This document shows, piece by piece, positions 5,536 to 38,946 of a stretch of DNA of 64,000 nucleotides. The translations under genes were made by a program, and so were the position numbers. Position 1 is the stretch's first letter. Each line of letters opens with the position of its first letter. The notes under the pieces were generated by a model. The model was not told the DNA's origin and searched no databases. It was given only the letters and a program-made list of their open reading frames with translations. The stretch covers positions 12,123 to 76,122 of IMG/VR virus record IMGVR_UViG_3300024999_000081; one strand, 5' to 3'. The stretch is from a virus.

Positions 5536-5555
5536 AAGTAAAATTGAATAAAAAC

Positions 5556-5584
5556 TTGTAATTCTATAATAACTAAGATATAAT
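5556..5584 (+). promoter_or_regulatory. Sigma-A promoter embedded in an 18 bp inverted repeat
   Basis: TTGTAA-17-TATAAT inside CTTGTAATTCTATAATAA...TTATTGTAGAATTACAAG (5555-5601). Confidence 0.6.
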
Positions 5585-5627
5585 TATTGTAGAATTACAA
5601 GATAAGAAAAGAGATGATACTTAATAT

Positions 5628-9559: not shown

Positions 9560-9572
9560 TAAATAATATTTC

Positions 9573-9601
9573 TTGACATTTATAATGGAATAATGTATTA
9601 T
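9573..9601 (+). promoter_or_regulatory. Sigma-A promoter
   Basis: TTGACA-17-TATTAT with upstream GTAATAAATAATATTT shared with the promoter at 22033. Confidence 0.7.
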
Positions 9602-9644
9602 TAGTATATGAATAATAAATAAAAATAAAGGAGGGATCACACAA

Positions 9645-9938
9645 ATGAAAAAACTACTTATCACATCAATTATTCCAATTCTAATATTATCGGGCTGTGG
9701 TGCAAAATCAAATCAAATCCAAAAACCTCAAACACAACAATCTCAAGATCAAGACGATGATGAAGAAATGGGATGGTTTGAAGATGAAGTTTTGGATCTT
9801 GATGATTGGGGCGAAAGTAAACACAAGAAAGTAAAACCTAAGACAAATACAGGCACTTCTAACGTGACAAAACCATCTGCTAATACAAAATCACCTACAG
9901 TTAAATCTAAGACTGCTACAAGCAAAAAGAAGGGTTGA
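9645..9938 (+). CDS. Small lipoprotein with acidic core and basic tail
   Basis: Signal peptide, lipobox LSGC. Confidence 0.7.
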   Translation: MKKLLITSIIPILILSGCGAKSNQIQKPQTQQSQDQDDDEEMGWFEDEVLDLDDWGESKHKKVKPKTNTGTSNVTKPSANTKSPTVKSKTATSKKKG

Positions 9939-12900
9939 GAAGTAAGAAATAAATTATCTCTTTTAAATGAAAGGTGGTTAAAAAGTGGAAACGATTAATT
10001 TACAAGATAATCATAGAAAAGTTCTGAATAGCAAAATTACTAAAGCAATCAATTCTATACCAGATGAAACTATTCAAGAAATATTTTTAGATTATATTGC
10101 AAGCGAGATTGATAGTTTGTATTCTGAAAGTAATTTTCAAGACATTGTAGAATCTCAATTAAGAGAAATGATTAGAAACATGTTTATTGAAAAAGGATTG
10201 CTAAAATCAACAAAAATTGAGGAGAGTATTTAATTAATGAAAAAGAAAATAGAATTAACTTATCTAACCCCTTTAGAATTTATTGCTACATATACAAGAG
10301 AAGAATTTTTTAGAGGAGAGCATGATAGTGAAAGAAAATGGTTAGAAGAGGATGCAGGAATGCCTATATTAAATATTATTGCAAAAATTACAACTGGTAA
10401 TTATGATCAGTTTATTATGAAAACTTTTGATAAATTTGCTCCAAAGGTAGGGTTTTTATATTGTGGAGAACATGATATATTTCATGAATATGAAAAATGC
10501 CCATTCTGTCAATTAGGGATACGAGTTGATTAATAAAAATAAATATTAGGAGGAATGCATAAGATGGAAGAATTAAAGTTATATAAATTTAATGATGGTG
10601 ATTATGAGCATTGGATTTTAGCAAACAATCTTGTTCAGGCTATTGATTATTTTGTTCATGATTATTGTGGAGAGGATGAGTCTCAATTTGAATATGGATT
10701 TACTATTAGTTTAGTAGATGATGAAACATTAGATATTGAATTTGAGGATGAAGGGGAAAATACTTCTTGGAGAAAAATCATGAATGAGTGTGAAGTTATA
10801 CCAAATTGCATTGGAACAAATGTAGATTAATTTTCATATTTTTAGGAAGTTGCGATTCTAAGAATCAAGTTATAGGTTGGTTTCATGGTTCGTAACTTCC
10901 CATAAAAAGTCGATTTTAATGGAGTAGGAGGAGTAAAATGACAACAGTTAGAGATATTCAAAAAGATATTGCAGAATTATTAATATTCATTGCTGAATTT
11001 TATAATTTTGACGATGACGCAGGATTAACTGATATAGCATCAAGACTATATCAAATCACAGATAAAATGTAAGTATATTAAAAATTAGTTTGATGGCAAA
11101 GAAAGAAGGGAACTAAAAATGGGAATGTTTGATGCCTTTTATGGAGAAGTCCAATGTCCACATTGCAGAGATGTTCATAAATTTGAAGAACAAACTAAAC
11201 AATATGATTGTATATTAGCAGAATTTCTTATTGGCGATTATGTAGAAAAGGGTAATGCTAATTTTACATATAAATTTGAGTGGTTTTGTGAAAAAGATAG
11301 AGATAAAACATTTGATATTGGTATTGCTTTCCACAGAGGACAAATAGTTAAATTTTTAGTGAATGAAGAAATAGAAACTGTTAATCCTGAATTATTAGAT
11401 AATATTAAAGATGGTTTAGGCAGAAGGTTACTTTATGAAAAGAAATGTAGAAAAGCTGATGGTATTCCCAAAGAACATCTTGAGTATGAATTAAACCCAT
11501 TGTCAGAAGGATATAAATTTATTGCTTTTGAAGTTGAATGGGAAGTTATAAAACTTTATAGGCAGAAAGAGCATTGGATGTTTAATGGTATGGAATATTA
11601 TTATGAAATTAAATCCAAGGAGCATGGGACGAGAATCATGCATGCTTCAAAAAGATTTTGGGATAGTGGTATGGAGATTATAACTTTCAACCATGCCAAT
11701 AAATATAAGTCTCTATATTTTGATGAATAATCCTAGCAAAATTCCATTTTATCGTACAAATAAGGAGGAAACAATAATGAAAATTGAAATACAAACTTCT
11801 CAAATAAGTGAACAGTATATTAAAGACACATTTAGCCAATATACAGAAGTATATCAAATGCCTAAACTAATTAAAGGAAGATGCATATTTCATATGTATC
11901 CTTATCAAGATACAACAAATGAAGATGGTAGTTTAGTAGGATATAATGATGCAATGTTATTCAACTTACATATTTATGATATTGAGAATATGAATGTTTG
12001 GAAAACAAGCAATAAAGATTCACTTGATATTGATGTTCCTTGTAAAATTAGGATATTCAAAGATTTGAGTACAATGGTAGTTATTGATGGTGGAGTTGAA
12101 CTACATTCATTTCAAGCATTTGAAGTCTGTAAAATAGGAAAATATGATAGAATATAAAATAGTATATGAAGTGATTAGAAAGGAAGAAAACAACAATGAA
12201 AATGTGGGCTTGTACTTATCAATATGAAGAAGATTATTTTCATGATTTTGCAAAAAATGATATTACATATGGAATTGAACCTACTCAATTGCTACCAACA
12301 AAAAAAATTAGCAGAACAAATGATTGAAGATTTATTGAGTGATGATTATGTTCCTGTTGAAATTGAAATATATAGCTATAAAGAGAAAGGTGTATTGTCT
12401 TATAGTATTGGTAGAGTGGATATGTGGGGCAGAAGATAATGAATGGGAGGATGATGAATAAATGGATATTCTAAACTTACATACAAACGTATATGATTGT
12501 TACACCAACAAAGTAAAAGGAAATAAACTTCTTACATATGAAATGGTTCAGAAGAAACTCACCAGAAACTATCACTTATCAAAGAAAGTAAAATTAGGTT
12601 CACAAGAATTATGCCTATATGGATGCCTTACCTTTCTAGTAAGTGAAAATTGTGTCTTATGGTTAAAGAATTACATAGGAACAGATACCTCTTGGTTTGT
12701 TAAGGATATCAAGAAGTACAACAAACTCAATGAGCAATTAGGAATTGACAATAATGCAAAAGAATTTAAACTTGACTAAATATGAAAATAATTATATAAT
12801 GAAAGAGGAATAATGAATTGGCTGAAATGATATTATCATATCTTAAAAAGGAAGCAGATAAAGAAGTTATAAGAAAAGCTAAAGCAAAAGAGCAAGATAT

Positions 12901-22061: not shown

Positions 22062-22232
22062 TATTAAGTAGGTTAAAAATAAATAATATTTTAGAGAAAG
22101 GACTGATTGGTTGAAGAATAAAGGTAATTGTTGGAAACCTGTCAAGAGAAGCAAACCGCCTCCTTCTTTCAATATATTTTAATAGATCATGTGAATAATA
22201 AAATAAAAATATTGAAAGAAGGAATACATATA

Positions 22233-23480
22233 ATGGCAAAAGTTAAAGATGAACAATTAGGTCTAAAAAAAGGTAAAGCACAATTCCTACTCATCGGTGA
22301 AGCAAAAGTAAATGATTATACTTTCACAATGGATAAAGATACTACAAAATCAGATTGGGTTTGGAATCAAATGAATCTTGGTGTAGATTGTGGAAATGGA
22401 AATGTTATCTATTCAGATATGATGGGTGGTTACGGATCAGAAAGAGATAATGTAGTATATGTTCATGGTATAAAAGAAGTAGATGGTAAAAAACAAGAAG
22501 ACTTTGATAATAAATTTACCATTGATTGGGACGATAGATTTGACGAAACAATTCTTGAATCTGTGGCAGACTCTTGTTTCATCAAAGTTGGTTTAGAAAA
22601 AGATACAAAAGATAAGACGTTCAAAAATAAATTTTTATCTGCCTATGATGCAATTCAATACATACAACAACATCTTGAAAATGGAATGGTAGTAAATGTT
22701 AAAGGAAAATTAAAATATCAAGCTTATAATGATAGTGTATCTATTAAGAAAGAAGTAAATTCTGTATTCTTATCAAAAGCAAAACCAGAAGAATATAAAG
22801 CAGTATTTACACAAACATTGCTTTGTGACGCAAATGCAGTTGGTAAATTAGATAGAGAAAAGGCATCATTTCCAATTACAGGATATGTAGTTGATTATGT
22901 CGGTAAATACGATGGTAAAGAAATTAAGAAAACAGTTGCATTTACAAAGACATTTGAACTAGAAGTTGATAAGGCAAAACCAGAAAATACAAAGAAACTT
23001 ATTGCTAAATGTTTTGCTCCTGCTAAAAAAGGCACTCTTGTTGAAGTAACAGTAGAAGGAGAAATGCTTGAAGGGGCAAGTGTAGTAAGCATTACACTAG
23101 ATGATCTTCCAGAGGATATTCGAGAACTTATTGAACTTAATGTTATCACAGAGGAAGAGGCTCTTAGTAAATGTGCAATTGGTGGTAATAAAGAAAAAAG
23201 AATGCTTATTAAAAGACCTTTAATTACATTTGAAGGTGAAGGAGAAACAAAAGTTCCAATTTTGGCAATCAATAAAGATAAATATAAAGAAAGTGATTTA
23301 GTTTTCCTTTCTCAATTTATTGAAGTTGAAGAAGAGAAGGAGGAAGAAACAGAAGATTTAGAAGAAAGTGTTACTGAGTTTGAAAAAGCATTAGATAAGA
23401 AAAAAGAAGATGATGATACTGAGGATGACGAAGAAATAGCAGTTGATGATGAAGCATGGATGAAATTGTTAGATGTATAA
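22233..23480 (+). CDS. Putative phage ssDNA-binding protein (SPbeta YorF-like position)
   Basis: Beta-rich body, very acidic C-terminal tail, first gene of the replication operon; likely start MAKVK. Confidence 0.55.
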   Translation: MAKVKDEQLGLKKGKAQFLLIGEAKVNDYTFTMDKDTTKSDWVWNQMNLGVDCGNGNVIYSDMMGGYGSERDNVVYVHGIKEVDGKKQEDFDNKFTIDWDDRFDETILESVADSCFIKVGLEKDTKDKTFKNKFLSAYDAIQYIQQHLENGMVVNVKGKLKYQAYNDSVSIKKEVNSVFLSKAKPEEYKAVFTQTLLCDANAVGKLDREKASFPITGYVVDYVGKYDGKEIKKTVAFTKTFELEVDKAKPENTKKLIAKCFAPAKKGTLVEVTVEGEMLEGASVVSITLDDLPEDIRELIELNVITEEEALSKCAIGGNKEKRMLIKRPLITFEGEGETKVPILAINKDKYKESDLVFLSQFIEVEEEKEEETEDLEESVTEFEKALDKKKEDDDTEDDEEIAVDDEAWMKLLDV

Positions 23481-23591: not shown

Positions 23592-24572
23592 ATGGGATTT
23601 CAGAAAAAAGAAGAAGTATTAGCGTATGTAGGTGGTAAAGTATTAGCATTTGGGGCAACTGGGTCAGGAAAATCAACGTTTGCAGGTACATTTCCTAATA
23701 TTAATTTAGTAGATAGTGAAGATGGTAATACATATTATCTTGAAAGTAATCCTAATATTATTGGAGTTATGCGTACAACATCTGCATCTGAGGTTCAAGA
23801 AACATTAGATGAATTAAATGATGAGGAAGCATTAAAAGATTTTGATACTATTGCAATTGATAGTGGAACAAAATTATATGAAAATATGCAAGCAGCGGCG
23901 TATGAAGTTGTTGAAAAAAGATCAAGAAAACAAATGAGAAAAGGTAAAGAAGTAGATATGGGAGACCTGGGTTTGGCTACAAGAGATTGGGGTCATATTA
24001 AAAGATGGAATCAAGCTCTAAAAACAGCATATATTATATTTTCATCCCTCGGCAAGTGGGTAGTTGAAATTGCTCATCAAAAAGATATTTTCGATGATCC
24101 ATCTTCTCTTAATAAAAAGAAAATTGGAGAAGCACCGGATTTAGCTAAGAAGGCAGAACATGATTTTGATATTGTACTTCAAATGTTTACTAAAGAAGAT
24201 AAAGATGGTAATGTAACTTACTTTGGTAAAATTTATAAAGATAGAACTGGAGTAACCAAAAAAGGAGAGATCATTGAAAATCCTTCTTTTGAAATTTGGA
24301 GAGCAAAATGGGAAAGCACAAAGAAATTTGGAGTTAAAAAAGCATTAGACTTATCAGTAGGGGTAAGTAAAGACACTGAATTTATGGAAGCAGAAGATGA
24401 ACAAGCAGAAGATGTTGCTAACCAAATTAAAGCATTACTAAAAACTAGTTCTGAAGAAAATCAAAAGAAGATTGGAAAGAAAATTAGAGACTTAGAAATC
24501 AATATCAAAGATTTAGTTAATAATGATATTGAAAAATTGAATCAAGTGTTAGAATTCGCCGAAATGCTGTAA
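23592..24572 (+). CDS. AAA_24/Sak4-like ATPase (YorG-like recombination protein)
   Basis: Walker A GATGSGKST, IAIDS, DWGHIK, IAHQK, KDRTG. Confidence 0.8.
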   Translation: MGFQKKEEVLAYVGGKVLAFGATGSGKSTFAGTFPNINLVDSEDGNTYYLESNPNIIGVMRTTSASEVQETLDELNDEEALKDFDTIAIDSGTKLYENMQAAAYEVVEKRSRKQMRKGKEVDMGDLGLATRDWGHIKRWNQALKTAYIIFSSLGKWVVEIAHQKDIFDDPSSLNKKKIGEAPDLAKKAEHDFDIVLQMFTKEDKDGNVTYFGKIYKDRTGVTKKGEIIENPSFEIWRAKWESTKKFGVKKALDLSVGVSKDTEFMEAEDEQAEDVANQIKALLKTSSEENQKKIGKKIRDLEINIKDLVNNDIEKLNQVLEFAEML

Positions 24573-24658: not shown

Positions 24659-25129
24659 ATGGAAGAGAAAATAACTAAAAAACAAGAGCAAGTCGAATGG
24701 TTAGAAATGTGTTCCTATATTTTTAAAGAAGTATTACAGTATGAAGAAGGTAAAAAATTTCCAAAATACTTAGCATTGAGGTTAAGGGGTTTACATGAAG
24801 GAAAGTTTATGGCAAATACAAAACAAAAACCACAAGCAAGTTATGATTATAAACTTATACTACTAACCTTTAAATTTTGTAAATATAGTATTCTTCAATA
24901 TTTAGGCCCAAGCAGAGAGAAGATTAAAGATGAACGGCATTTAATAAATACCATAATGAGTTTTGTAGAAAATGAAATAAATAATGTTGTATCAAGATTA
25001 AAAAATTCTAAGAAGGCAGAAGAAAAAACTATGAACATTGAATTAAATAATCAAGTACATGAAGGAGCTGAATATAAACCAAAATCAAAAGATAAAAAGA
25101 TTGATAAGGAATTGGAGGAATTATGGTAA
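24659..25129 (+). CDS. Replication accessory protein (YorH-like position, possible helicase loader)
   Basis: Lies between the AAA ATPase and helicase; LRLRGL motif. Confidence 0.5.
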   Translation: MEEKITKKQEQVEWLEMCSYIFKEVLQYEEGKKFPKYLALRLRGLHEGKFMANTKQKPQASYDYKLILLTFKFCKYSILQYLGPSREKIKDERHLINTIMSFVENEINNVVSRLKNSKKAEEKTMNIELNNQVHEGAEYKPKSKDKKIDKELEELW

Positions 25130-26659
25130 ATGGTTGTTGCTACAAAAACAAAGACAAAAACTACTGTTGCTAAAAAAGAAATAAGTCCTTATGAACAATT
25201 ACTTATTGATGCTGTAAAAAAAGTAAAAGAGTTTAAATTATCAGCAGAAGCCAATATAACGTCTATATTTTTTAAGAATCCAGAACTAATTTATTCTTAT
25301 GATAATTTAACATTGCAAGATTTCTCCAATAATGAATGGAAAGTATTATTTACAATTGCTCACGATATTATCAAAAAAGAAAAGAAACAATCTTTAGATG
25401 AAATCACAGTTGGTTTATATCTTGAGAAACATGCTAAATTAAAGGTTAAATATGAGGACTATGGTGGATATGATACTATTGAAAAAGCTAAAGAATATAT
25501 AAAAGAAGAAAATATTAATGGATACGTAGATGAATTACATAAATGGAATGCAGTTTTAGGATTATTAAAAGCTAAATTTCCTGTATATGATCAACTTAGT
25601 AAATTTGCAGATATGAACGTAGAAGAGATATATGCTTATTATGAAACACACCTTAATCATATATTTATTAATGCGGAAGGAGATGTTACAAGTTACAATA
25701 TAGCAGATGATATTGATAGTCTAATTGAAGAACTAAATGAAGGATTAGCTGTTGGATTACCTTATTATAATTTACCAATGTTAACAAAAGAAACAGGAGG
25801 TATGTTATGTGGGAACATTACTCTAATAGGGGGATTATCAAATGTAGGTAAAACAACTTTTGCTAGAAATGCGATTCTTCAAAGTATCATTGATACTAAT
25901 GAAAAGATAGTAATTATGTTAAACGAAGATGGTCTAAAGAAGTGGCAGCGCGAAATAATTGTGTATATTGCCAATAATATATTCAAATACGAATTGCAAA
26001 AATATATTGTTAGAGATGGCAAATATTCAGAAGAAGTAAAAGAAATATTATATAAAAGTGCTAATTGGTTAAAACAACAAAAAGATGCAAAGTTAATTAC
26101 TATTATACCTTTTAAAAGATGGTCTTCTGCGAATGCAATTAAAATAATGAAAAAATTCTCAAGCTTGAATGTTTATCATTACATGATTGATACCTTCAAA
26201 AATGATGCAGGTAACGTACAAGATAATGCATGGTTGAGTATGATGCAAAGTATGGTAGATTTATATGATATCGTAAAACCAGATGTAAAAAATCTACATC
26301 TAACCGCAACTTTTCAATTAGAAAAAGGTAAAACGGCAAGGCAAAGATACTACTCTCAGGATAACGTTGGATTGGCTAAGAACATTATTGATCCTGTTTC
26401 TACATGTCTTATGATTAGGAATTTATTTGAAGATGAATATCCTGATGGAAAGAATGCTTTAAAAGTATATAGATTAGAAGGTAAAAGGGGGTTAACGAAG
26501 ATACCTGTAATATTAAATAAAGATAAAAATTATCAACTAATATTCATAGTTAAAAACAGAGAGGGTTCGGCAAATACATTTCAGATTGTTATTGAACATA
26601 ATTTATCGCAAAATACATTAAAAGAAATTGGAATTACCTCCGTACCAGTTGATTTTTGA
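25130..26659 (+). CDS. dnaB: DnaB-like replicative helicase
   Basis: Walker A GGLSNVGKT, IDTFK, TFQL, KNREG. Confidence 0.8.
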   Translation: MVVATKTKTKTTVAKKEISPYEQLLIDAVKKVKEFKLSAEANITSIFFKNPELIYSYDNLTLQDFSNNEWKVLFTIAHDIIKKEKKQSLDEITVGLYLEKHAKLKVKYEDYGGYDTIEKAKEYIKEENINGYVDELHKWNAVLGLLKAKFPVYDQLSKFADMNVEEIYAYYETHLNHIFINAEGDVTSYNIADDIDSLIEELNEGLAVGLPYYNLPMLTKETGGMLCGNITLIGGLSNVGKTTFARNAILQSIIDTNEKIVIMLNEDGLKKWQREIIVYIANNIFKYELQKYIVRDGKYSEEVKEILYKSANWLKQQKDAKLITIIPFKRWSSANAIKIMKKFSSLNVYHYMIDTFKNDAGNVQDNAWLSMMQSMVDLYDIVKPDVKNLHLTATFQLEKGKTARQRYYSQDNVGLAKNIIDPVSTCLMIRNLFEDEYPDGKNALKVYRLEGKRGLTKIPVILNKDKNYQLIFIVKNREGSANTFQIVIEHNLSQNTLKEIGITSVPVDF

Positions 26660-26685: not shown

Positions 26686-27726
26686 ATGACCTCTATTGAA
26701 TTAAAACAATACATATTAGATAATAATAAACTACAAGAAATACTAAAATCCCTAGATTGTCATGGTATTAAGGAATACACCAAAGAATTAAGATGTGGAT
26801 TGCCCAATCATACATCTAATAATAATATTGCAATAAATAAAGAAACGTTATCTACTAAAATATTTCAATCTGATAGTGAAATAATAAGAGGTGATCTGCT
26901 AACTTTAGTTATGACAATAAAAAATATTTCATTTCCAGAAGCAAATAAATATTTACATAAGTTACTTGGCTTAGAGTACAAATTTAAAATAAAAGAAGAT
27001 AAATCTGATAAAAAAGATCCATTGAACGTATTCAAGAAAGTTAAAAGAAAAAGATGTGTTGTTAATCTAGATGACATTGAGTTGTATGATGAAGGAATTA
27101 TTAAAGAGTACATTCCATTACCTCACATTGATTGGATAAGAACAGATGGTATTCTACCATTTACATGTGAATTATTTAAAGTTGGTTATAGTGCAGATAA
27201 GAGAAGAATTACACTTCCTTGGCGTATATGGTATGGGGAAGAAAATGATTTTGCGGGTGTGATAGGGCGTACAACCATAAAGGAATATTCCATGTTGGAT
27301 ATCCCTAAATATTTTCCATTGAAGAAGTTTCCTAAATCAATGCATTTATATGGATTACAAGAAAATTACAAAACAATTCAAGAGGCAGGTTATGTTTTGG
27401 TTTACGAATCTGAAAAATCAACATTAAAAAGACACAGTAGAAAAGATGGTACTGGAGTATCTATTGGTTCTCATTGTCTAAGCGAAGAGCAAGTAAAAAT
27501 ATTGATTGGATTGAACGTATCTGTGATTATAGCTTATGACAAAGATGTATCTTTACAATATATTCGTTCTGAATGTGAAAAATTTAAATTTATTAGACCA
27601 ATATATTTTATATATGATAAATATGATTTGCTTGAAGATAAAATGAGTCCGGCAGACGCAAGTAATACTATTTTTAATTATTTATTAAAACATAAAATAA
27701 AATATGATAAATCTGAACATAAATAA
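26686..27726 (+). CDS. DNA primase (TOPRIM), YorJ-like
   Basis: RITLPWR, GVIGRT, LYGL, YESEKS, IAYDKD, SPAD. Confidence 0.8.
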   Translation: MTSIELKQYILDNNKLQEILKSLDCHGIKEYTKELRCGLPNHTSNNNIAINKETLSTKIFQSDSEIIRGDLLTLVMTIKNISFPEANKYLHKLLGLEYKFKIKEDKSDKKDPLNVFKKVKRKRCVVNLDDIELYDEGIIKEYIPLPHIDWIRTDGILPFTCELFKVGYSADKRRITLPWRIWYGEENDFAGVIGRTTIKEYSMLDIPKYFPLKKFPKSMHLYGLQENYKTIQEAGYVLVYESEKSTLKRHSRKDGTGVSIGSHCLSEEQVKILIGLNVSVIIAYDKDVSLQYIRSECEKFKFIRPIYFIYDKYDLLEDKMSPADASNTIFNYLLKHKIKYDKSEHK

Positions 27727-27751
27727 TATACGAAAGAAGATTGATATAACA

Positions 27752-28444
27752 ATGAATAAAAAATTAGATGTTGAGTTAAAAGTTAATAAAAGTAAAAAAT
27801 ATATAAATGATTCAATATGGGAAACTAATAATTTTGGTAAGATTAAAATAATTGGTAAAATTGATAAATCACATTATCTAGTAGAATTTATAGATGATGG
27901 AACACAGGTAATCACTCAAGGAGGTTCTATTTGTGGTAAGACAGTTAAAAATCCATATTATCCATTAATTTATAATATTGCATGTCTAGGAAGGATATCT
28001 CAATATCATTTTTTACATAAAAGATGGGAAAGTATGATAATGAGAATTTATGATAAAAATTGCAAAGCATATAAAAATTACGGAGGAAGAAATATAGATA
28101 TTGATTCAGAATTATTATGTTTTGAAAATTATGTTGAATATATTTCATCATTAAATAATTATAATGATTTAGTAAATAATAAGAGAAAATATGATATTGA
28201 TAGAATAAATAATGATGAAGGATATAAAAAAGGAAATATAAGGATAGCTACTCATTCTATAAATCAAAGAAATACTAGAAGTAATAATATTATTAAAATG
28301 AGTAAAGATAATGTAATCATAGATGAAGATATTATTATAAGATTAGTAGAAAAATATCCTCAATATGATTTAAGACAAGGTGGAATTAGTTTTGTCGTTA
28401 ATGGAAATCAAAAATCACATAGGGTTTTACTTTTGAAAAAGTAG
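27752..28444 (+). CDS. Free-standing HNH homing endonuclease with NUMOD-like tail
   Basis: W..MIMRIY, YKNYGGRNI, DIDRINNDEGY...NIRIAT..NQRN. Confidence 0.75.
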   Translation: MNKKLDVELKVNKSKKYINDSIWETNNFGKIKIIGKIDKSHYLVEFIDDGTQVITQGGSICGKTVKNPYYPLIYNIACLGRISQYHFLHKRWESMIMRIYDKNCKAYKNYGGRNIDIDSELLCFENYVEYISSLNNYNDLVNNKRKYDIDRINNDEGYKKGNIRIATHSINQRNTRSNNIIKMSKDNVIIDEDIIIRLVEKYPQYDLRQGGISFVVNGNQKSHRVLLLKK

Positions 28445-28461: not shown

Positions 28462-29616
28462 ATGAGAAAACAATTTGAAGAAATTAAATTAATAGCAAAT
28501 AAATTAGATTGTGATGAGATTTACTCATGGTCAAAATATAATCAATATAAAGGAGATCCTTATACTTTTTACCTTAAATACATCCTTAAAATCCCAGAGG
28601 ATAGAAAGGATTCAATATATGGAGTATTAGGAAATGCTTCACATGATATATTAGAGAAATATTATAATAAAGAAATATCATACACAGATATGATAGAAAT
28701 ATTTGAAGAAAAATTATTTGAATTTACTATTGGTAATCTAAAATATGATAGAAGTGATGAAGAAAAAAATAAAAAGATAGGAAATAAATATGAATCATGT
28801 ATGAGACACTTCTTTAAAAATCATCAACGAATACCTAATAAATTGAAATTAGAAGTATTTGTTCCCATAAAGATAAATAATATATTAATTCAAGCTTATA
28901 TAGATGCTATACATATGGAAAAAAGAGAAGATAAAGATATTTGCATAATTACAGATTGGAAAACAAGCTCTTTATATAAAGGGAAAAAGGTATTAAAGGA
29001 GCGTGGTCAGTTATTACTTTATAGTTATGGCGTTCACAAAAAACTAAACATACCAATGGATCAAATTATAGCTAGATGGGCGTTCCTTAAATATGTAGAA
29101 GTAGAATGTATGCAAGCAAATGGAAAATTAAAAAGTCGCATTATTGAAAGGAATTCCATAGGAAGTAGTTTATCGTCAAATGCTAAAATGTGGTTAAAGA
29201 AATTAGATAGTAAATTTTCAGAAGAACAAATTGATGATTATCTTAGTCAAATGGTAGTTGATAATTCTATAGATTGTTTGCCAGATGATGTTAAGAGTAA
29301 ATTTGTAGTGAAAGATTGCTATGTTGAAATATCTTTAGATGATGAATCTATTCAAGAATTATTAGATGATATCGTGAAGACTGTTGAAGAGATTAAGCAA
29401 AAACAAGAAGAGTATAAATTAACATTGGATAATAAAATATGGTGGCAAGATGTTACTGATACAGAGAGTTATTTCTTGGCGAATTTAAATGGGTATTCGT
29501 CAGCGATTCATAAACCATATAGAGAATACCTTGATGCCTTGGGGATGTTTAAGGATAAAGAAAATAGTAAAGTTGATGAAAATGATCTTTCTTGGATGGA
29601 AGGACTTATGGATTAG
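28462..29616 (+). CDS. PD-(D/E)XK exonuclease (AddB/Cas4-like fold)
   Basis: YSWSK, GNASHDILE, AYIDAI...ITDWKTS, QLLLY. Confidence 0.8.
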   Translation: MRKQFEEIKLIANKLDCDEIYSWSKYNQYKGDPYTFYLKYILKIPEDRKDSIYGVLGNASHDILEKYYNKEISYTDMIEIFEEKLFEFTIGNLKYDRSDEEKNKKIGNKYESCMRHFFKNHQRIPNKLKLEVFVPIKINNILIQAYIDAIHMEKREDKDICIITDWKTSSLYKGKKVLKERGQLLLYSYGVHKKLNIPMDQIIARWAFLKYVEVECMQANGKLKSRIIERNSIGSSLSSNAKMWLKKLDSKFSEEQIDDYLSQMVVDNSIDCLPDDVKSKFVVKDCYVEISLDDESIQELLDDIVKTVEEIKQKQEEYKLTLDNKIWWQDVTDTESYFLANLNGYSSAIHKPYREYLDALGMFKDKENSKVDENDLSWMEGLMD

Positions 29617-29627
29617 GAGGAATGAGT

Positions 29628-32048
29628 ATGAATAATATTTTTTATGACTTCGAAGTATTCAAATTAGACTGGATGGTAGTATGTATCAATCAAACTACAA
29701 AAGAAAAAACACAAATTATAAACAATCCTGATGAATTACGTGAATTTTATGAGTTGCACAAAGAAGATATCTGGATAGGATATAATAGTCGTAATTATGA
29801 TCAATACATACTTAAAGGAATTTTATTAGGTATGAATCCATACAAAATCAATAATGAAATTATTCTCAATGATAAAAAAGGTAATCAAGTAGTAAAAAAA
29901 TCAAATACTTTTCCACTAAATAATTTTGATATTTCTACTGGTTTTCATAGTTTGAAACAATTGGAAGGATTTCTTGGATCTAAAATCCAAGAGTCCTCAG
30001 TACCATTTACTATAAACAGAAAACTAACACCAGAAGAATTAGATGAAGTATTAGAATATTGTACACATGACGTTGAACAAACAATTGAAGTATTCAATCA
30101 TAGAAAGGAAGAATTCGACAGTCAATTATCTTTAATTCAAGCATTTAATATGCCAATGACTATGTTTACAAAAACAAAAGCACAACTTTCAGCTATTATT
30201 TTAGATTCACAAAAAACCGAAAGAAATGATGAATTTGAATTAACTATACCTGACACACTACTTATATCTGATAAATATAAGTATATCGTGGATTGGTATA
30301 AAGTTAAAGAGAATATGAATTATAAGAAAAGCTTAATTACAGATGTAGCAGGGGTTCAACATGTATTTGCTTGGGGAGGAATTCATGGTGCAATACCAAA
30401 TTATTCATATGAAGGAATTATACTTTGTTGTGATGTTGCATCTCTTTATCCTGCATTAATGATAGAATATGGTTTTGTAAGTAGAAATGTAAGTGATTCT
30501 AGTAAATACAAAGAAATAAGGGATACTCGTTTAAAATTAAAAGCAGCAAAAAACCCCATGCAATTACCTTATAAAATTGTTCTTAATGCTACCTACGGAG
30601 CAATGAAAGATGAATATAATAATTTATATGATCCTTTAATGGCTAATAATGTGTGCATTGCTGGACAATTATTATTACTAGACTTAATAGATAAAATTGA
30701 GCCATTCTGTGAATTAATACAATCGAATACAGATGGTTTATTCCTTAAAATTAATAACATTGAAGATATTGAAAAGATAAAAAACGTAGCAAAAGAATGG
30801 GAAATAAGAACAAGATTAGATTTAGAATGGGAAATATTTGATAAGATTTTTCAAAAAGACGTTAATAACTATATTATTATTGATGCTAAAGGAAAGTATA
30901 AATCCAAAGGGGCATATGTAAAAAAACTAAATGCAATTGATTATGATTTACCAATTATTAACGATGCTTTAATAAATTATTTTGTAAATGGTAAACAAAT
31001 TGAAGATACTATTAATGAATGTAATGATCTTATCAAATATCAGAAGATTGTTAAAGTATCAAGATTATACCAACACGCTTTGTATGGAGATGTAAAAATA
31101 AACGAAAGAGTATTAAGAGTTTTTGCTAGTATGGAGGAATCATCCCCAGGAGTATTCAAAGTAAAAGGAGAAGATAAAATTGAGAAAATAGGTAATACTC
31201 CAGAACATTGTTTTATTTACAATGAAGAAGTTTTACATGAAAGTATTCCAAAAGAATTGAATAAACAATATTATTTGGATATGGCAAATAAAAGATTACA
31301 TGACTTCTTAGACCCAAAAGTAAAGAAACAAAAATTACCAAGTGATATTAAATTTATAACTAATGCAATTAGAGATTCTATCTGTAATATTATTGATGAA
31401 AATCCGAATATTAATTTTATTGATTTATTAAATATTATCTTTGAAAATGTAAAAGTTAGTGCTAGACAAATAAATATTCTTATTATATTGAACTATTTTA
31501 TTAATTATGGAAAAAATAAAAAACTTATGCAAATTCTTGATCTATATAATAAACATGGCAAACGTAAACAATTAAAAATAAAGGATCTTGAAAAACTAGA
31601 AATAAAGGAGAATATATTAATAAAATATTCTCAAGATAAAACTGAAAACCAATATCGTAAATTAGATATGACTGGATATATAAAAGAAGTGAGCGTGGAA
31701 TTTGAAGATAAGGCATTGTCTATCAAAGAACAAATTAAGAATGAATTGGAATATGCTGATACGATTTTCACCACTTATGAACAAGCTGGAGATAACTTCT
31801 ATATTGTAATTGATTTAAAAAATACTGATAAATTTAAACCGCATGTAATTCTGAGACAAATCAATTCAGGAGAAGAAGTACGAACAAAAATTAAAGAAGC
31901 TACTATTTATATTGAAAATCCTTTTAAATTATTCTCTGTTTTGAAAGTGAGAGAATTTAACCATCAAAAGAAAAGTATAATGATTGATGGTAAATGGGGA
32001 AAATCAAGTGAAACTGAAAAAATATTATTTGACTATGAGGTGTATTAA
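29628..32048 (+). CDS. Family B DNA polymerase with 3'-5' exonuclease and long C-terminal extension
   Basis: Exo I YDFEV, Exo II GYNSRNYD, Exo III YCTHDV; Pol A DVASLYP, B KIVLNATYG, C NTDG. Confidence 0.88.
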   Translation: MNNIFYDFEVFKLDWMVVCINQTTKEKTQIINNPDELREFYELHKEDIWIGYNSRNYDQYILKGILLGMNPYKINNEIILNDKKGNQVVKKSNTFPLNNFDISTGFHSLKQLEGFLGSKIQESSVPFTINRKLTPEELDEVLEYCTHDVEQTIEVFNHRKEEFDSQLSLIQAFNMPMTMFTKTKAQLSAIILDSQKTERNDEFELTIPDTLLISDKYKYIVDWYKVKENMNYKKSLITDVAGVQHVFAWGGIHGAIPNYSYEGIILCCDVASLYPALMIEYGFVSRNVSDSSKYKEIRDTRLKLKAAKNPMQLPYKIVLNATYGAMKDEYNNLYDPLMANNVCIAGQLLLLDLIDKIEPFCELIQSNTDGLFLKINNIEDIEKIKNVAKEWEIRTRLDLEWEIFDKIFQKDVNNYIIIDAKGKYKSKGAYVKKLNAIDYDLPIINDALINYFVNGKQIEDTINECNDLIKYQKIVKVSRLYQHALYGDVKINERVLRVFASMEESSPGVFKVKGEDKIEKIGNTPEHCFIYNEEVLHESIPKELNKQYYLDMANKRLHDFLDPKVKKQKLPSDIKFITNAIRDSICNIIDENPNINFIDLLNIIFENVKVSARQINILIILNYFINYGKNKKLMQILDLYNKHGKRKQLKIKDLEKLEIKENILIKYSQDKTENQYRKLDMTGYIKEVSVEFEDKALSIKEQIKNELEYADTIFTTYEQAGDNFYIVIDLKNTDKFKPHVILRQINSGEEVRTKIKEATIYIENPFKLFSVLKVREFNHQKKSIMIDGKWGKSSETEKILFDYEVY

Positions 32049-34307
32049 TTGGCAAACAAAAATAAAATAATTTACGAATTCAAAGGTGTTGTAGTCGCAA
32101 ACCCCTATAATACTGACGATTATAAAATATATGCCTTAGAGGTTGATGATATTAAATACCCACATATAGCGAGAAATACATATCAAAATGTTAGTATTTT
32201 AGGTAATCTGCCTGACTTAGAGATAGGTATAGAATATTCAGTAAAAGGCGAAGAAAAAGAAGGCAAGAATGGTATATCGTATAAGGTAATTAATATTGGA
32301 AGAGATATACCTAAAACAGAAACAGCAACTAGATTATTTTTACAAAGTATATTAGATAGTAATAGTCATGTTGATGAGGTAATGCGCGAATATCCTGATA
32401 TTATTGATAGAGTTATCAATAATCGTTTAGATGACATTGACTTAAACAAACTCTATAATATTGGGAAAGTTAGATTCGAGGTTATTAAAAGAAAAATAAT
32501 TGAAAACTTTGTATTAAGTGAGTTGGTCACGGAATTTAAGGGATTTATCGAATTCAAAATCTTAAAGGCATTATATGATAAATATGGTTCAGTGGATAAT
32601 ATTAAAGAAAAACTTCAAAATGATCCGTACAAGTGCTTATGCGGTCTCTCACATACGGCCTTCAAAACAGCAGACAAAATACTCCTTGAATTTAACAAAG
32701 ACTGCATTGCAACAAAAGCTAAAGGAGAAGTCCCTCCAATTGATTTCACTTTCGATTTACAAACTTCTAGTCAAAGACAAAAATCAGCAATCATGTTTTT
32801 ACTAGAAGAAAATGAGAACGATGGTAATACAAAAATTGATATTAAAGTTTTAAGAAAACAATCCGAATCTTTAGCAAAAAAATGTATTGAACACTTTGTT
32901 AATATTATCAAGAATGATAAAGATATTCATTTTGATAAGGGGTTAAATACTGTTGCTTTAGAAGAAACATATCAAACAGAATTATACATTGCTAATAGAA
33001 TTTTAGAAGGCTTGAAGGTGGATAATAAGTGGGATATTGATACTGAAAAATATAGAGATAATGGTGATATTGTTCTAACTGATCAACAACATAAAGTTTT
33101 ACCTATGGTGTGTAATTCTAATGTATGTATTCTCAATGGGTTTTCAGGAAGTGGAAAGTCAGCAACTACTAAATCAGTAATTGATATGCTCAAAGATAAT
33201 AATAAGTCATTTTGTTTATTTGCACCTACGGGAAGAGCTGCAAAGGTATTATCAGAATTTACCAAAGAAAATGCATCTACTATACATAGAGGGTTGGCTT
33301 ATATGCCTCCAGATTGGGGGTATAATGAGGAACATAAATTACCTTATGATGTAGTGGCGGTAGACGAATTCGGGATGTGCGATGTATTTTTAATGAAACA
33401 TCTTTTAGAAGCAATTGATTTTAGAAAAACTAAATTATTAATGATTGGAGATTCAAGTCAAATTCCATCTGTTGGAGCAGGAAATGCTTTCTATGACTTA
33501 ATTAATTCAAACCTAATACCCATAATTTCTTTAACACAAATATTTAGATATGGAGAAGGAGGAGTCTTGACTGTAGCAACTAAAACTAGAAATTGTGAAA
33601 AGTTTCTGGAATATTCTTCGAAACCGCAAGTATTTGGAAATGATAAAGGATATATGTTTGTTCCAATGCAACAAGAAAAAATAATTAAAAATGTTGTAGC
33701 TTTATATCAAAAATTATTGTCATCTGGAAATTTAAGAGAAGATATAATGATTTTATCTTCATATAATGTTGGAGATTATGGAACAATTGCTATAAATAAA
33801 TATCTACAACCTATCGCCAATCCTAATGTCACACAAAAAGGAATTAATGTTCAAATTGGTGAAACAAAGTTTTATGAAAATGATCTAATTATTCAAACAG
33901 TAAATAATTATAAAGCAATAAGATATAAAGATGGTTGGATAGACGAAGATGATAAAACATTTGTTGCAAATGGTGAGATTGGTAAAGTAATTAAAATTGA
34001 ATACGGCAAAGTAATTATAATGTTTGATGAATTGGTTGTTTATACTAAGAATGATTTATTAAATGTTAAGCTTGGATATTCAATATCTACATTTAAAGCA
34101 CAAGGCGGTCAGGCTAAAATAGTTATTATGATTACCCCTAAAGCTCATACCTTTATGCTTAATAGTAATCTTATCTATGTTGCACAAACAAGGGCTAAAC
34201 AAAAAGTATTTCATTTTGGAGAAAATGAGACAGTAAATAGAGCTATTAAAAAGAAAGCAGATTTTAATAGAAAAACCCATCTTAAAGAATTATTGTTAAA
34301 CTCTTAA
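32049..34307 (+). CDS. recD2: RecD2-like SF1B helicase
   Basis: GFSGSGKS, APTGRAAK, TIHR, VDEFGM, GDSSQIPSVGAG, NGEIG, KAQG, YVAQTRAK. Confidence 0.88.
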   Translation: MANKNKIIYEFKGVVVANPYNTDDYKIYALEVDDIKYPHIARNTYQNVSILGNLPDLEIGIEYSVKGEEKEGKNGISYKVINIGRDIPKTETATRLFLQSILDSNSHVDEVMREYPDIIDRVINNRLDDIDLNKLYNIGKVRFEVIKRKIIENFVLSELVTEFKGFIEFKILKALYDKYGSVDNIKEKLQNDPYKCLCGLSHTAFKTADKILLEFNKDCIATKAKGEVPPIDFTFDLQTSSQRQKSAIMFLLEENENDGNTKIDIKVLRKQSESLAKKCIEHFVNIIKNDKDIHFDKGLNTVALEETYQTELYIANRILEGLKVDNKWDIDTEKYRDNGDIVLTDQQHKVLPMVCNSNVCILNGFSGSGKSATTKSVIDMLKDNNKSFCLFAPTGRAAKVLSEFTKENASTIHRGLAYMPPDWGYNEEHKLPYDVVAVDEFGMCDVFLMKHLLEAIDFRKTKLLMIGDSSQIPSVGAGNAFYDLINSNLIPIISLTQIFRYGEGGVLTVATKTRNCEKFLEYSSKPQVFGNDKGYMFVPMQQEKIIKNVVALYQKLLSSGNLREDIMILSSYNVGDYGTIAINKYLQPIANPNVTQKGINVQIGETKFYENDLIIQTVNNYKAIRYKDGWIDEDDKTFVANGEIGKVIKIEYGKVIIMFDELVVYTKNDLLNVKLGYSISTFKAQGGQAKIVIMITPKAHTFMLNSNLIYVAQTRAKQKVFHFGENETVNRAIKKKADFNRKTHLKELLLNS

Positions 34308-35778: not shown

Positions 35779-38700
35779 TTGACAAAAATGAATGATAATG
35801 TAGAAAAACTTTTAGAAAAAAGATATTACTTGAGAGATAATAATGATAATTTTACGGAACATTCATGGTCAGACATATCTCAAAGAATCGCAAATAGTAT
35901 TGCTCAAGCTGAAAATGAAAAGGATATTCCTTATTACATAAAACAATTTTATAATAAGATCAATGATATGGAGTTCATTCCTTCTTCTCCGTGTATCTTT
36001 AACGCAGGAACACCTTCCCAATCATTGAGTTCATGTTTTGTAGTAGATATTGAAGATAATATTGAAGGTATCTTTTCCACTGTTGCAGAATGTGCAAAGA
36101 TTTTTCAAATGAGTGGCGGAGCAGGATTCTCAATGAGAAAGATTCGCCCCAAAGGTTCATTGTGCAAATCATCTGGTTCTAATGCTTCAGGAGTATGTTC
36201 TTTTATGCATGTTTTTAATGAAGTTGTAAATAGGGTTAAACAAGGAAATAAAAGAAATGGTGCATTAAAAATCGACCTACCTTGTACTCATCCAGAGATT
36301 TTTGATTTTATTCACTCTAAAGACATTACTGAAGATTTAAAAAACATGAATATATCCGTTAGTATCACAGATGAATTTGTTAAAGCAGTAGAAAATAGCG
36401 AAGACTGGGATTTAAAATTCAATGGATTAGTTTATCAAACAATCAAAGCAATTGATTTGTGGAATGAAATTATGCTATGCGCTTGGAAGACAGGGGAGCC
36501 AGGATTGAGTTATCAGTCCAATATGGATAAAGGAAATATGAATCCTCAATTAAATGAATCTGTATATGGTAATCCTTGTTTTTCTGGGGATATGAGATTA
36601 CTAACTGTAGATGGGTATAAAACATTTGAAGAATTATCTGAAACAACAGTTAAGATTATTAATTCAAATGGAGATATATCTGATAGTAATGTTTGGTGTA
36701 GTGGAGAGAAAGATACTATTGAATTAACAACCAGTAATAAGAAGAAAATTAGATGTACTCCAGATCATATTGTTATGCTGAACGATAATGAAGAATGTGA
36801 GATTCAATATGCTTTAAAGAAAAGAGTTATGCCATATCACGGAAAAACAAATGTTTCTAAAGATTTGTTTGTTCAATTAGGTTTCTTACAAGGAGATGGT
36901 GGCATTGGAAGAATTAATTCTGAAGCGCATCTTGGTTTAGAAATAAATATTGGAGAAAAAGATAAAGAAATATTTGAATTATTTAATATTGTGCCTATTG
37001 ATGGAAAAAAGGCATATTATACTAATGGATATAATAATACTTTAGTTAAGTATGGGTTTGACGGAAGTCCTTTGCCAGAAAGAGTATTTCCTATTACATA
37101 TACTAATTGGACAAAAGAACAAAAATTAAATTTCTTAAAAGGTTGTTATTCTGCAAATGGTTGTGTGATAAAGACGCATAGGATTTCTTATAAAACAACT
37201 TCTAAAGTATTCTCTTTGCAATTAAAAAAGGCATTAGAAGAGTTTGATATTGTTTCATATATTACTACCAATAAACCTACAATGGTAAAGTTTACAAATG
37301 GTGATTATCTGTGTAAAGAAAGTTATGATATAAATATTGGTAGATTAGATGATGTAATTTTCTTCTATCAAAATATTGGGTTTATGCAACAATATAAAAT
37401 AAATGATCTTGTAGATTTAATTAAACTAAAAAGCCCAAAAATAATGACCATGAAGCAGTTGGGAAAACAAAAGGTTTATGACTTTTCAGAACCATTGACA
37501 CATTGGGGAGTAGTAGAAGGATTAGTAGTACATAATTGTCATGAATATGTCAATATTCCATATTCTTCATGCAACTTAGCTTCGGTAAATCTTAAAAAAG
37601 TAATTGAACACAGCAAAGTAAATTGGTTTAAATTAAAAGAAAATATTGAATTAACTTTCAGATTCCTAGATGACATGATTACCATGAATAGACTTCCTCT
37701 TGAAAAGATTAAAACTATTACACATCTAATTAGACCAATAGGGCTTGGGACAATGGGTTTTGCTCAATTACTATATGAATTAAAAATACCTTATAATTCT
37801 CAAGAATGCTTAGACTTTATTGATGTGCTATATGGTTTTATTGAGAAAACGTGTCTTGAATACAATGTAAAACTTGGAAAAGAAAGAGGAATCTATCCTG
37901 CATGGAAGGGAAGTAAATGGGAAGAAGAAAACCTTGAAGTTAGATGCTCTAGTATGACTAGTATTGCTCCAAATGGAAGTATTGCATTTATTGCGGATAC
38001 AACAGGGGGAATCGAGCCTCAATTTGCCCTTGTCTACAAGCGCAGAGACAAAGAAAATGATGAATATATGGTTGCAGATAGTGTTTTCGAAAATTATCTC
38101 AAAGAGAATGGTCTTTACACAAAAGAGATATTAGATAAAATTAATGAAAATAAAGGTTCTATTAAAGGATTGGATAGCATATTCACTCAAGAAATACAAA
38201 ACATATTTGTAACTGCAAATGATATTTCACCAGAATGGCATGTGAAAGTATTAGCACAAATACAGAAATACATATGTTTAAGTATCTCCAAGACAGTCAA
38301 TTTGCCAAATAATGCAACTATAGAAGATGTAGGAAATGTATATTTAATGGCAGCTAAATTAGGAATCAAAGGTGTTACTGTATATCGCGATGGTTGCAGA
38401 TCCAATCAAATATTAAGTGTTGGAGAAGCAACTGAAGAAATTCCTAAACAAGAATTTGTTTTTCCTGCTGAGACATTAAAATATGCACATGCTGAAAGAT
38501 TCAAGGTTGATTCTGGATGTGGGAGTTTTTGGTTATTCTTATGTTTTGATGATAATGAAAATCTTAGAGAAATATTTTCTCAATCAGCAACTCAAGGAGG
38601 ATGCCAAGGTTTAACCGAAGCATTATCAAGAATGACTTCGTTGGCACTGAAATCTAATATCCATCCTGAAGTAATTATTGACCAACTTAAATCAGTTAGA

Positions 38701-38946
38701 TGTCCTGTTAGTATGATGATGAGAAAGGAAAAAGGATTGGATTCTAGGTCGTGTGCAGATGCAATTGGTAATGCTATTAGAGATTTTATCAAAGGTAAAG
38801 ATTTAAAAGTAGCAATAGTAAAAGAAACAAAAACCATTCAAATTGAAAATTCAGATTCAACTAAATGTCCTGAATGTGGTGCAGAATTAGGTATGACTGA
38901 GGGTTGCAGAACGTGTCCTAATTGCTTTTATAGTAAATGCTCATAA
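35779..38946 (+). CDS. nrdJ: Class II (adenosylcobalamin-dependent) ribonucleotide reductase with intein and C-terminal TSCPD-like/Zn-ribbon domain
   Basis: FIPSSPCIFNAG, LSSCFV, GEPG, NP-C-HEY after splicing, CNLASVN, SIAPNGS, SKTVNLP, KGVTVYRDGCR, SCADAI, EGCRTCPNCFYSKC; no nrdB partner nearby. Confidence 0.9.
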   Translation: MTKMNDNVEKLLEKRYYLRDNNDNFTEHSWSDISQRIANSIAQAENEKDIPYYIKQFYNKINDMEFIPSSPCIFNAGTPSQSLSSCFVVDIEDNIEGIFSTVAECAKIFQMSGGAGFSMRKIRPKGSLCKSSGSNASGVCSFMHVFNEVVNRVKQGNKRNGALKIDLPCTHPEIFDFIHSKDITEDLKNMNISVSITDEFVKAVENSEDWDLKFNGLVYQTIKAIDLWNEIMLCAWKTGEPGLSYQSNMDKGNMNPQLNESVYGNPCFSGDMRLLTVDGYKTFEELSETTVKIINSNGDISDSNVWCSGEKDTIELTTSNKKKIRCTPDHIVMLNDNEECEIQYALKKRVMPYHGKTNVSKDLFVQLGFLQGDGGIGRINSEAHLGLEINIGEKDKEIFELFNIVPIDGKKAYYTNGYNNTLVKYGFDGSPLPERVFPITYTNWTKEQKLNFLKGCYSANGCVIKTHRISYKTTSKVFSLQLKKALEEFDIVSYITTNKPTMVKFTNGDYLCKESYDINIGRLDDVIFFYQNIGFMQQYKINDLVDLIKLKSPKIMTMKQLGKQKVYDFSEPLTHWGVVEGLVVHNCHEYVNIPYSSCNLASVNLKKVIEHSKVNWFKLKENIELTFRFLDDMITMNRLPLEKIKTITHLIRPIGLGTMGFAQLLYELKIPYNSQECLDFIDVLYGFIEKTCLEYNVKLGKERGIYPAWKGSKWEEENLEVRCSSMTSIAPNGSIAFIADTTGGIEPQFALVYKRRDKENDEYMVADSVFENYLKENGLYTKEILDKINENKGSIKGLDSIFTQEIQNIFVTANDISPEWHVKVLAQIQKYICLSISKTVNLPNNATIEDVGNVYLMAAKLGIKGVTVYRDGCRSNQILSVGEATEEIPKQEFVFPAETLKYAHAERFKVDSGCGSFWLFLCFDDNENLREIFSQSATQGGCQGLTEALSRMTSLALKSNIHPEVIIDQLKSVRCPVSMMMRKEKGLDSRSCADAIGNAIRDFIKGKDLKVAIVKETKTIQIENSDSTKCPECGAELGMTEGCRTCPNCFYSKCS
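36577..37536 (+). mobile_element. Intein (320 aa) with LAGLIDADG homing endonuclease, inserted at the RNR catalytic NPCxE cysteine
   Basis: Starts CFSGD, block B CTPDH, LGFLQGDG and FLKGCYSANG motifs, ends VYDF...VVHN/C. Confidence 0.92.

Follow-up and report, generated by a model that had tools for sequence, protein, structure and literature searches.

A phage polymerase with a family-B core and a DnaE-derived C-terminal tail in the DnaE position of a c-st-type replication module

Families B and C of replicative DNA polymerases are unrelated in their catalytic folds. In-situ swapping of polymerase families has been described in Caudoviricetes (Yutin et al. 2024, Virol J 21:200; PMC11348598), including a clade that joins Spbetavirus with phages of 61-185 kb, in which family C is regarded as ancestral and has been replaced by PolA (PMC11348598). 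According to a review of SPbeta, the replication of SPbeta-like phages has not been studied (PMC8270828). Regarding phage family-C polymerases, Kazlauskas and Venclovas (2011), who named Clostridium phage c-st, noted a C-terminal region unlike that of E. coli (PMC3201878), c-st being moreover a phage without any known processivity factor (PMC3201878). The present work deals with a chimeric polymerase gene, formed by a family-B (PolB) core and a C-terminal tail derived from DnaE (family C), which is located on the + strand at 29628..32048 of a 64,000-nucleotide stretch (hereafter, the window; positions 12,123 to 76,122) of the IMG/VR virus record IMGVR_UViG_3300024999_000081, inside a replication module with the gene order of c-st.

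The gene is a single open reading frame (ORF) of 806 amino acids (aa) plus stop, running from the ATG at 29628 to the stop codon at 32046-32048 without internal stop or frameshift. An AGGAGG sequence is found at 29615-29620, with the polymerase ATG seven bases on, directly behind the stop of the upstream gene. In the original prediction, made from the nucleotide sequence, complete PolB exonuclease and polymerase motifs were seen to be followed by about 240 extra aa resembling the end of DnaE polymerases. All the peptides then quoted have been found in the translation, that is, LNKQYYLDMANKRLHDF at aa 544-560, SDIKFI from aa 572, NFIDLL, VSARQINILIILNYFINYGKNKKL, LSIKEQIKNELEY, ENPFK and DGKW, and both the translation and the stand-alone relatives confirm the complete motifs and the additional residues. 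Since those stand-alone relatives stop at the equivalent of approximately aa 566, the last ~240 aa are a true extension. Intact copies of the gene, near-identical or related, are present on five other IMG/VR contigs (L004-L008). Among cultured phages, a megablast search with the 18 kb around the gene gave no match, and no record covers more than 73% of the polymerase protein.

The core (aa 1-566; 29628..31325, +), which comprises the 3'-5' exonuclease, palm, fingers and thumb, is assigned by PHROG profile, relatives and fold. Residues 2-566 match PHROG 1252 ('DNA polymerase') with an E-value of 8e-162, and a second profile, phrog_4210 (1304 positions), also matched this region. In an alignment with 47 relatives, the residues of Exo I (D7/E9), Exo II (N53/D58) and Exo III (Y144/D148) are invariant, as are D269-S272-Y274-P275 of motif A (D269VASLYP), K316-N320-G324 of motif B (K316IVLNATYG) and T368-D369 of motif C. 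A profile of the polymerase family compared with the Protein Data Bank (PDB) retrieved only PolBs (Sulfolobus PolB1, E 6e-7, followed by KOD, Pol zeta and Pol II); a single-sequence PDB search gave chance matches only. The full-length AlphaFold model (pLDDT 88.9, pTM 0.71) was placed by Foldseek among family-B polymerases in all the top 50 matches (E ~1e-14, probability 1.00). Thus, the polymerase belongs to family B by its motifs and its fold. The whole protein has no Pfam match at E<0.1, PF00136 included, and several close relatives have precomputed matches to PF00136; neither Pfam nor NCBIfam gave anything significant, whether the query was the entire protein or just the tail, and weak matches to OB_YrrC (E 0.086) and DUF1955 were disregarded. 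The nearest cultured relatives of the core are stand-alone polymerases of 563-574 aa, among them those of Paenibacillus phage Wanderer (563 aa, 56% identical to the core), Staphylococcus phage PI-Sepi-HH2 and Bacillus phage BMBtp15; stand-alone phage PolBs were what had been foreseen for the first ~570 residues. Core and tail are separated by a short junction or linker (aa 567-571, the KKQKL P region; 31326..31340, +), at which the pLDDT of the full-length model dips to ~63; all the alignments of DnaE tails to the polymerase protein start immediately after it, at S572.

The likeness of the tail to DnaE C-termini, which had been proposed before any search, is borne out by sequence comparison. 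When the last 236 aa were compared with cultured phages by tblastn, the match was the C-terminus of CST061 of Clostridium phage c-st (E 7e-15, 100% coverage), annotated as 'DNA polymerase III alpha / YorL homologue', and weaker matches were obtained with DnaE genes of Geobacillus virus E3 and of Thomasclavelia, Bacillus and Lactococcus phages. In a pairwise alignment, the segment from S572 to the last residue is 33% identical to CST061 795-1032 (E 8e-35). CST061 has PHP, Pol III alpha palm, fingers and HHH_6 domains, and taking into account that the latter occupies residues 767-854 and that the alignment begins at 795, the tail starts approximately one third into the helix-hairpin-helix (HhH) domain. 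Metagenomic DnaEs are 49-52% identical to the tail over the same span; one of them, P0006, is 49% identical, and NCBIfam DnaE profiles built from cellular enzymes reach into the tail of this homologue. Tested on its own, as had been suggested, the end of the protein (last 235 aa) thus matches C-termini of phage DNA Pol III alpha of the DnaE type, as foreseen, and the opposite outcome, in which it would match PolBs only or nothing related to DnaE, did not occur. None of the PHP, Pol III alpha palm (PF07733) and fingers (PF17657) domains is found in the polymerase protein, which is therefore not a family-C enzyme, only its tail being derived from that family.

A HMMER search with the tail against 1.8 billion representatives retrieved 386 clusters. 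Among the best 150 of these 386, the match ends at or near the C-terminus in nearly all, and the upstream region is a DnaE core in 87 and the present PolB core in two. A few of these relatives are longer and unclassified, those scanned being mostly pieces of DnaE, and the remainder of the unclassified ones are short; the very long DnaEs that were scanned bear inteins. Two of the proteins observed, P0012 and P0053 (1535 and 1748 aa), are phage DnaEs with one or two LAGLIDADG inteins, one of them between the fingers and the HhH region. Another one, P0063 (422 aa), consists of an N-terminal fragment of a class-I (leucyl-type) tRNA synthetase followed by the oligonucleotide-binding (OB) part of the tail, and is either a chimeric contig or another fusion.

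Three parts can be recognised in the tail. The first one (aa 572-645; 31341..31562, +) is an HhH region homologous to the beta-binding/HhH domain of DnaE, with a conserved LNYFxxYGKNKKL, four helices in the model and an isoelectric point (pI) of 9.4; it aligns to residues 795-867 of the c-st DnaE, where HHH_6 is matched. The second part (aa 646-715; 31563..31772, +) is a small alpha/beta connector, delimited by the secondary structure of the model and lying within the DnaE span of the structural matches obtained with VIA-align. The third part (aa 716-806; 31773..32045, +) is an OB-fold barrel according to fold matches, since residues 159-247 of the model match the OB folds of single-stranded DNA-binding protein (SSB), PriB, RPA and ExoVII at Z 6.3-7.4 and also the OB domain of Pol III alpha. 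The AlphaFold model of the tail (aa 560-806) was built on 47 tails and reached a pLDDT of 92.6 and a pTM of 0.84. Foldseek gave no match for it at E<=0.001, and DnaE was recognised by an exhaustive VIA-align comparison with 48,161 PDB chains, in which the top three were the Pol III alpha subunits of E. coli (5fku_A; Z 8.7, 171 residues, root-mean-square deviation (rmsd) 5.1 Å, chain residues 809-1071), Thermus (2hpi_A, Z 8.4) and M. tuberculosis (7pu7_A, Z 8.3). These three alignments include 171-187 residues at rmsd 4.7-5.4 Å and span the whole tail model; the sequence identity to cellular Pol III alpha is 12-14%, and the fold match lies at residues ~809-1121. The protein ends with the OB fold and consequently lacks the terminal (tau-binding) domain. 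The tail is thus most of the HhH (beta-binding) domain, the connector and the OB domain of a DnaE, without the tau-binding end. No convincing clamp-binding motif (of the QLxLF type; QADMF in E. coli) was seen by eye, no formal motif test having been made. The median pI of the tail is 8.6-8.7, and the core has a pI of 5.5.

The position occupied by this chimera can be defined by synteny. Upstream of it there is a PD-(D/E)XK exonuclease of 384 aa (28462..29616, +; PF12705, phrog_1218), 44% identical over its full length to CST060, and downstream a RecD2-type SF1B helicase of 752 aa (32049..34307, +; TIGR01448, phrog_4412), 46% identical to CST062, whose gene abuts the polymerase stop codon both here and in c-st. 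In c-st, CST060 precedes the DnaE gene and CST062 follows it, so that the gene order is the same as in the window. Genomic context was compared in IMG/VR loci, and the contigs of L022, L017/L018 and L015 come from the same series of metagenomes as the window. Their flanking genes are 79-89% identical at the amino-acid level to those of the window (exonuclease 79-88%, RecD2 83-89%, Sak4-like ATPase 83-85%), but they hold a DnaE of 1098 aa in the polymerase position, in which the window and L004-L008 hold the PolB with its tail. A replacement in the DnaE slot is therefore supported by synteny. The original prediction had taken SPbeta, with recJ plus dnaE at this position, as the comparator; the absence of a DnaE core stands, and the comparison itself has to be moved to c-st, with its PD-(D/E)XK exonuclease, DnaE and RecD2. 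Since the exonuclease that lies ahead of the polymerase here is of the c-st type, the missing RecJ is not part of the swap.

A further element of that proposal was that the catalytic core had been swapped while the tail was kept. The swap at the DnaE slot holds, and a recent retention of the tail in this genome does not. The nucleotide identity to L022 is 83-93% from the exonuclease gene through the first three polymerase codons; the core is then not alignable, the tail is uniformly 60-69% identical, and RecD2 is 83-90% identical from its first codons, with sharp steps at the polymerase start and stop codons. The PolB-tail gene (29628-29636) and the L022 DnaE gene (8001-8009) share the ribosome-binding region and the first three codons (MNN), which places the left recombination border just inside the ORF. 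At the protein level, the tail is 48-49% identical to that of L022 and the flanks are 88-89% identical, with the lowest values (20-37%) in the first ~35 residues after the junction. In sibling phages with flanking genes 84-89% identical to those of the window, the DnaE tail is 49% identical. Taking into account that the tail is far more diverged than the flanks and that the steps occur at both ends of the gene, the fusion is older, and the latest exchange involved the whole polymerase ORF. The same is indicated by a tract of 1345 nucleotides identical to L004 (30711-32055), which spans the junction and ends at the border between the polymerase and RecD2. No recombination breakpoint was found at the core/tail junction, the L004 tract starting within the core, at 30711.

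The history of the two halves was followed in quick trees in the case of the tail. The PolB-linked tails of the window's group form a supported clade, sister to the DnaE tails of the closest phage relatives and nested among DnaE tails. With wider sampling, PolB-linked tails form four or five groups, and forcing them into a single clade costs 56-57 log-likelihood units, with approximately unbiased (AU) test p values of 0.064 (LG+G4) and 0.036 (C20 mixture). This is suggestive of repeated tail exchange, although long branches are involved and a single origin is neither shown nor firmly rejected. In the core tree, the fused forms lie in the unresolved base, and 80 stand-alone forms from Bacillaceae constitute one supported clade. 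Length and tail go together in the best 120 core matches, the tail being present in 41/41 proteins of 773-822 aa and in 0/80 of 556-621 aa. The fusion is found in at least 41 metagenomic protein clusters (JGI, ENA, NCBI, MGnify and Logan), none of them named or from a cultured phage. In comparisons with three relatives, the ratio of nonsynonymous to synonymous substitution rates (dN/dS) was 0.04-0.07 in the core and 0.12-0.17 in the tail; purifying selection thus acts on both halves, the constraint being weaker on the tail.

Concerning other polymerases in the same genome, the 76-kb record to which the window belongs contains no similarity to DnaE other than the tail, and neither PF07733 (the DnaE palm) nor PF00712 (the beta clamp) was found in a relative of 178 kb (CheckV 100%) that carries a 98-100% identical gene. 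Thus, the chimera appears to be the only replicative polymerase of the phage.

In Pol III alpha, the HhH domain contacts duplex DNA and the OB fold contacts single strands. A joint explanation, which we regard as quite probable, comprises the chimera of a family-B core and a DnaE tail in the DnaE slot, a history of polymerase swapping and a tail that would hold DNA. The ancestral occupant of the slot would have been a DnaE, and a PolB core of the phrog_1252 family would have been joined ahead of a DnaE tail within this group of phages. Diversification of the chimera would have followed, and recombination at its borders would now exchange the whole gene with DnaE alleles. The PolB core would be in charge of genome synthesis and proofreading, and the tail would grip DNA, the HhH part contacting duplex product and the OB fold contacting single-stranded template, which would give a clamp-less phage polymerase a hold on its template whichever its catalytic fold. 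An identical (100%) tail is found with a helicase only 60% identical, and a tail of 49% identity with a RecD2 of 89%, the alleles of helicase, primase and RecD2 not co-varying with those of the tail. This lack of co-variation, together with a basic tail on an acidic core and the lack of a clamp gene, fits a partner-independent role in DNA binding.

Several points weigh against this explanation. The fold matches of the tail are modest (Z 8-9, rmsd ~5 Å); however, they rank first, extend over the full length and are consistent with the sequence evidence. Binding of DNA by the tail is a prediction made from its folds. Motif C is NTD instead of DTD throughout the family, with N367 invariant and the metal-binding second Asp retained. 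The record containing the window is partial (CheckV, 45% complete), and the claim that there is no second polymerase rests on one relative and two Pfam models. The beta clamp of the host could be used by the polymerase. Finally, in an SPbeta-like prophage of Bacillus rugosus SPB7 (L090; NZ_JABUXO010000018.1, 5397-11441), helicase, primase and exonuclease genes are followed in the same order by a tail-less PolB of 574 aa, with a core 66% identical and in the same slot, so that the tail is not indispensable to the PolB family concerned.

With respect to that prophage, a 238-aa ORF located after the PolB gene was considered as a split-off tail and rejected, as it encodes a peptidase-like protein. 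Comparable stand-alone PolBs, in about 80 clusters, are found in B. velezensis, B. amyloliquefaciens, B. subtilis, B. atrophaeus and related genomes, and suggest that the polymerase of SPbeta-like prophages has been replaced on another occasion. The tail profile retrieved nothing from the SPbeta-like phage Goe12 (in which PolA replaced DnaE), the B. rugosus genome or Wanderer, in a search run without a positive control.

The first alternative to a DNA-holding tail, docking having already been put forward in the original prediction, is that it acts mainly as a protein-docking adaptor, connecting whichever core is present to a lineage-specific partner in the replisome (the DnaB-like helicase, the primase or RecD2) or to the host beta clamp, a role with which DNA binding would be compatible. 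The equivalent region of cellular DnaE carries an established clamp-binding site (see also PMC3201878), and the polymerase gene abuts that of RecD2 both in the window and in c-st. Moreover, the tails of the window's group are sister to the DnaE tails of their own relatives and not to other PolB-linked tails, which fits a lineage-matched tail, and a single clade of all PolB-linked tails is marginally disfavoured by the AU values given above. Against docking, no partner co-varies with the tail, which is also found without RecD2 in Geobacillus virus E3 and in the SPbeta-like loci L035-L042; a clamp gene was not found, the inspection by eye revealed no obvious QLxLF-type motif, and the module of the Bacillus prophages works around a PolB that has no tail. 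We consider docking as the main role of the tail possible but rather doubtful.

The direction of the transfer could also be the reverse, with the HhH-OB tail being native to the PolB family and acquired from it by phage DnaEs. The location of the fused PolBs at the base of the core tree would allow a tail in the ancestor of that subclade. Nevertheless, the tail sits on DnaE cores in the great majority of clusters and across distant phage groups, it matches the same region of cellular DnaE both by fold and by NCBIfam profiles, it is missing from more distant PolB relatives (those of Wanderer, Enterococcus phages and a Clostridium metagenome-assembled genome), and the tail group of the window nests among DnaE tails, all of which makes a transfer from PolB to DnaE very unlikely.

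Least probable of all is that the fusion is an artefact, either of chimeric assembly or of two adjacent genes read as one, because, even though all the copies come from metagenome assemblies and a related contig of 349 kb that has both polymerase types ~170 kb apart could result from joining in the assembly, the ORF is found without interruption on six independent contigs from several samples and in the protein clusters of 773-822 aa from several sources, there is neither stop nor frameshift, purifying selection acts on both halves, and the identical tract of L004 crosses the junction. In that 349-kb contig (IMGVR_UViG_3300024999_000029; L074, L096), a module with DnaE and tail lies near one end and the PolB with its tail is in a different module, whose primase is only 26% identical, with downstream patches 84-97% identical at the nucleotide level; it could represent two related genomes of ~175 kb joined in the assembly, or a true double replicon.

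Returning to the chimera with a DNA-holding tail, it may be tentatively proposed, as one possibility of modest likelihood, that the HhH-OB tail is a self-sufficient portable module that c-st-type phages need instead of a sliding clamp, and that it goes with the phage lineage and not with the core. If this were true, tails would have been traded between DnaE and PolB alleles more than once, any catalytic fold would fit ahead of them, and a natural transferable domain for processivity or for coupling to the replisome would be available. The divergence noted in 2011 at the C-terminus of phage family-C polymerases would likewise be explained.

Upstream of the genes described above, the module contains a Sak4-like ATPase (23592-24572), a conserved ORF of 156 aa (24659-25129), a DnaB-like helicase (25130-26659, +; 57% identical to CST058 of c-st) and a primase-like protein (26686-27726, +; 51% identical to CST059), the profiles phrog_19 and phrog_6444 covering helicase and primase. 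A free-standing HNH endonuclease gene (27704-28444, +) is located between those of the primase and the exonuclease; it is missing at this place in the sibling L022, and a copy 61% identical is present in L071/L074, for which reason it looks like a mobile insertion. The 450-aa protein encoded at 22128-23480 (+; phrog_2367) shows a faint resemblance to the OB fold of SSB (PF00436, E 7.5e-4, a match that does not reach the cut-off) and may be the single-strand-binding protein of the module. Further downstream, at 35779-38946 (+), the large subunit of a ribonucleotide reductase (1055 aa) carries an inserted intein that has a LAGLIDADG endonuclease domain, recognised by Intein_splicing and LAGLIDADG_3 matches inside the Ribonuc_red_lgC barrel.

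The closest published counterpart of this locus is the swapping described by Yutin et al., with which it shares the presence, in close relatives, of unrelated polymerase families at one unchanged locus. The replacements reported there are whole-gene ones, between A and B in both directions and from C to A, whereas here the pair is C and B and the incoming enzyme bears a piece of the outgoing family. Neither a C-to-B replacement nor a chimeric enzyme appears in that text, from which the words chimeric, fusion and C-terminal are absent (PMC11348598). The published picture of swapping would thus gain a C/B pair and a partial-gene outcome.

With regard to individual enzymes, the c-st module built around CST061 (a YorL-type DnaE of 1032 aa) has the same gene order as the window, with neighbours 44-57% identical and a tail 33% identical; it differs in that c-st has PHP, Pol III alpha palm and fingers, whereas the window has a PolB core and no trace of those domains. 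The stand-alone PolBs of phrog_1252 (those of Wanderer, PI-Sepi-HH2, BMBtp15 and Bacillus prophages) are 54-68% identical over aa 1-566 and have the same motifs, including NTD in motif C, but they measure 556-621 aa, none of them is tailed, and they belong mostly to phages of ~35-40 kb or to Bacillus prophages. Structurally, the whole tail is matched best by cellular Pol III alpha (5fku, 2hpi, 7pu7), in which the HhH domain is likewise followed by the OB domain; unlike that protein, the tail of the window is without the tau-binding terminal domain and without a clamp-binding motif recognisable by eye.

The existence of a natural enzyme in which a family-B core is combined with a family-C accessory end implies that this end works independently of the catalytic fold, and suggests that the end piece of DnaE is a module that can be moved between enzymes. 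Moreover, the siblings, in which the polymerase gene is essentially the one difference, provide a ready-made comparison for the C-terminal region of DnaE. Processivity has been engineered in polymerases by fusing HhH domains of topoisomerase V, or Sso7d, to Taq or Pfu. The chimera described here resembles those fusions in having an appended module for non-specific DNA binding (predicted, in this case) and differs from them in that they are man-made and aimed at processivity, whereas the present one is natural; if its tail raises processivity, it would be a natural fusion partner for engineered polymerases.

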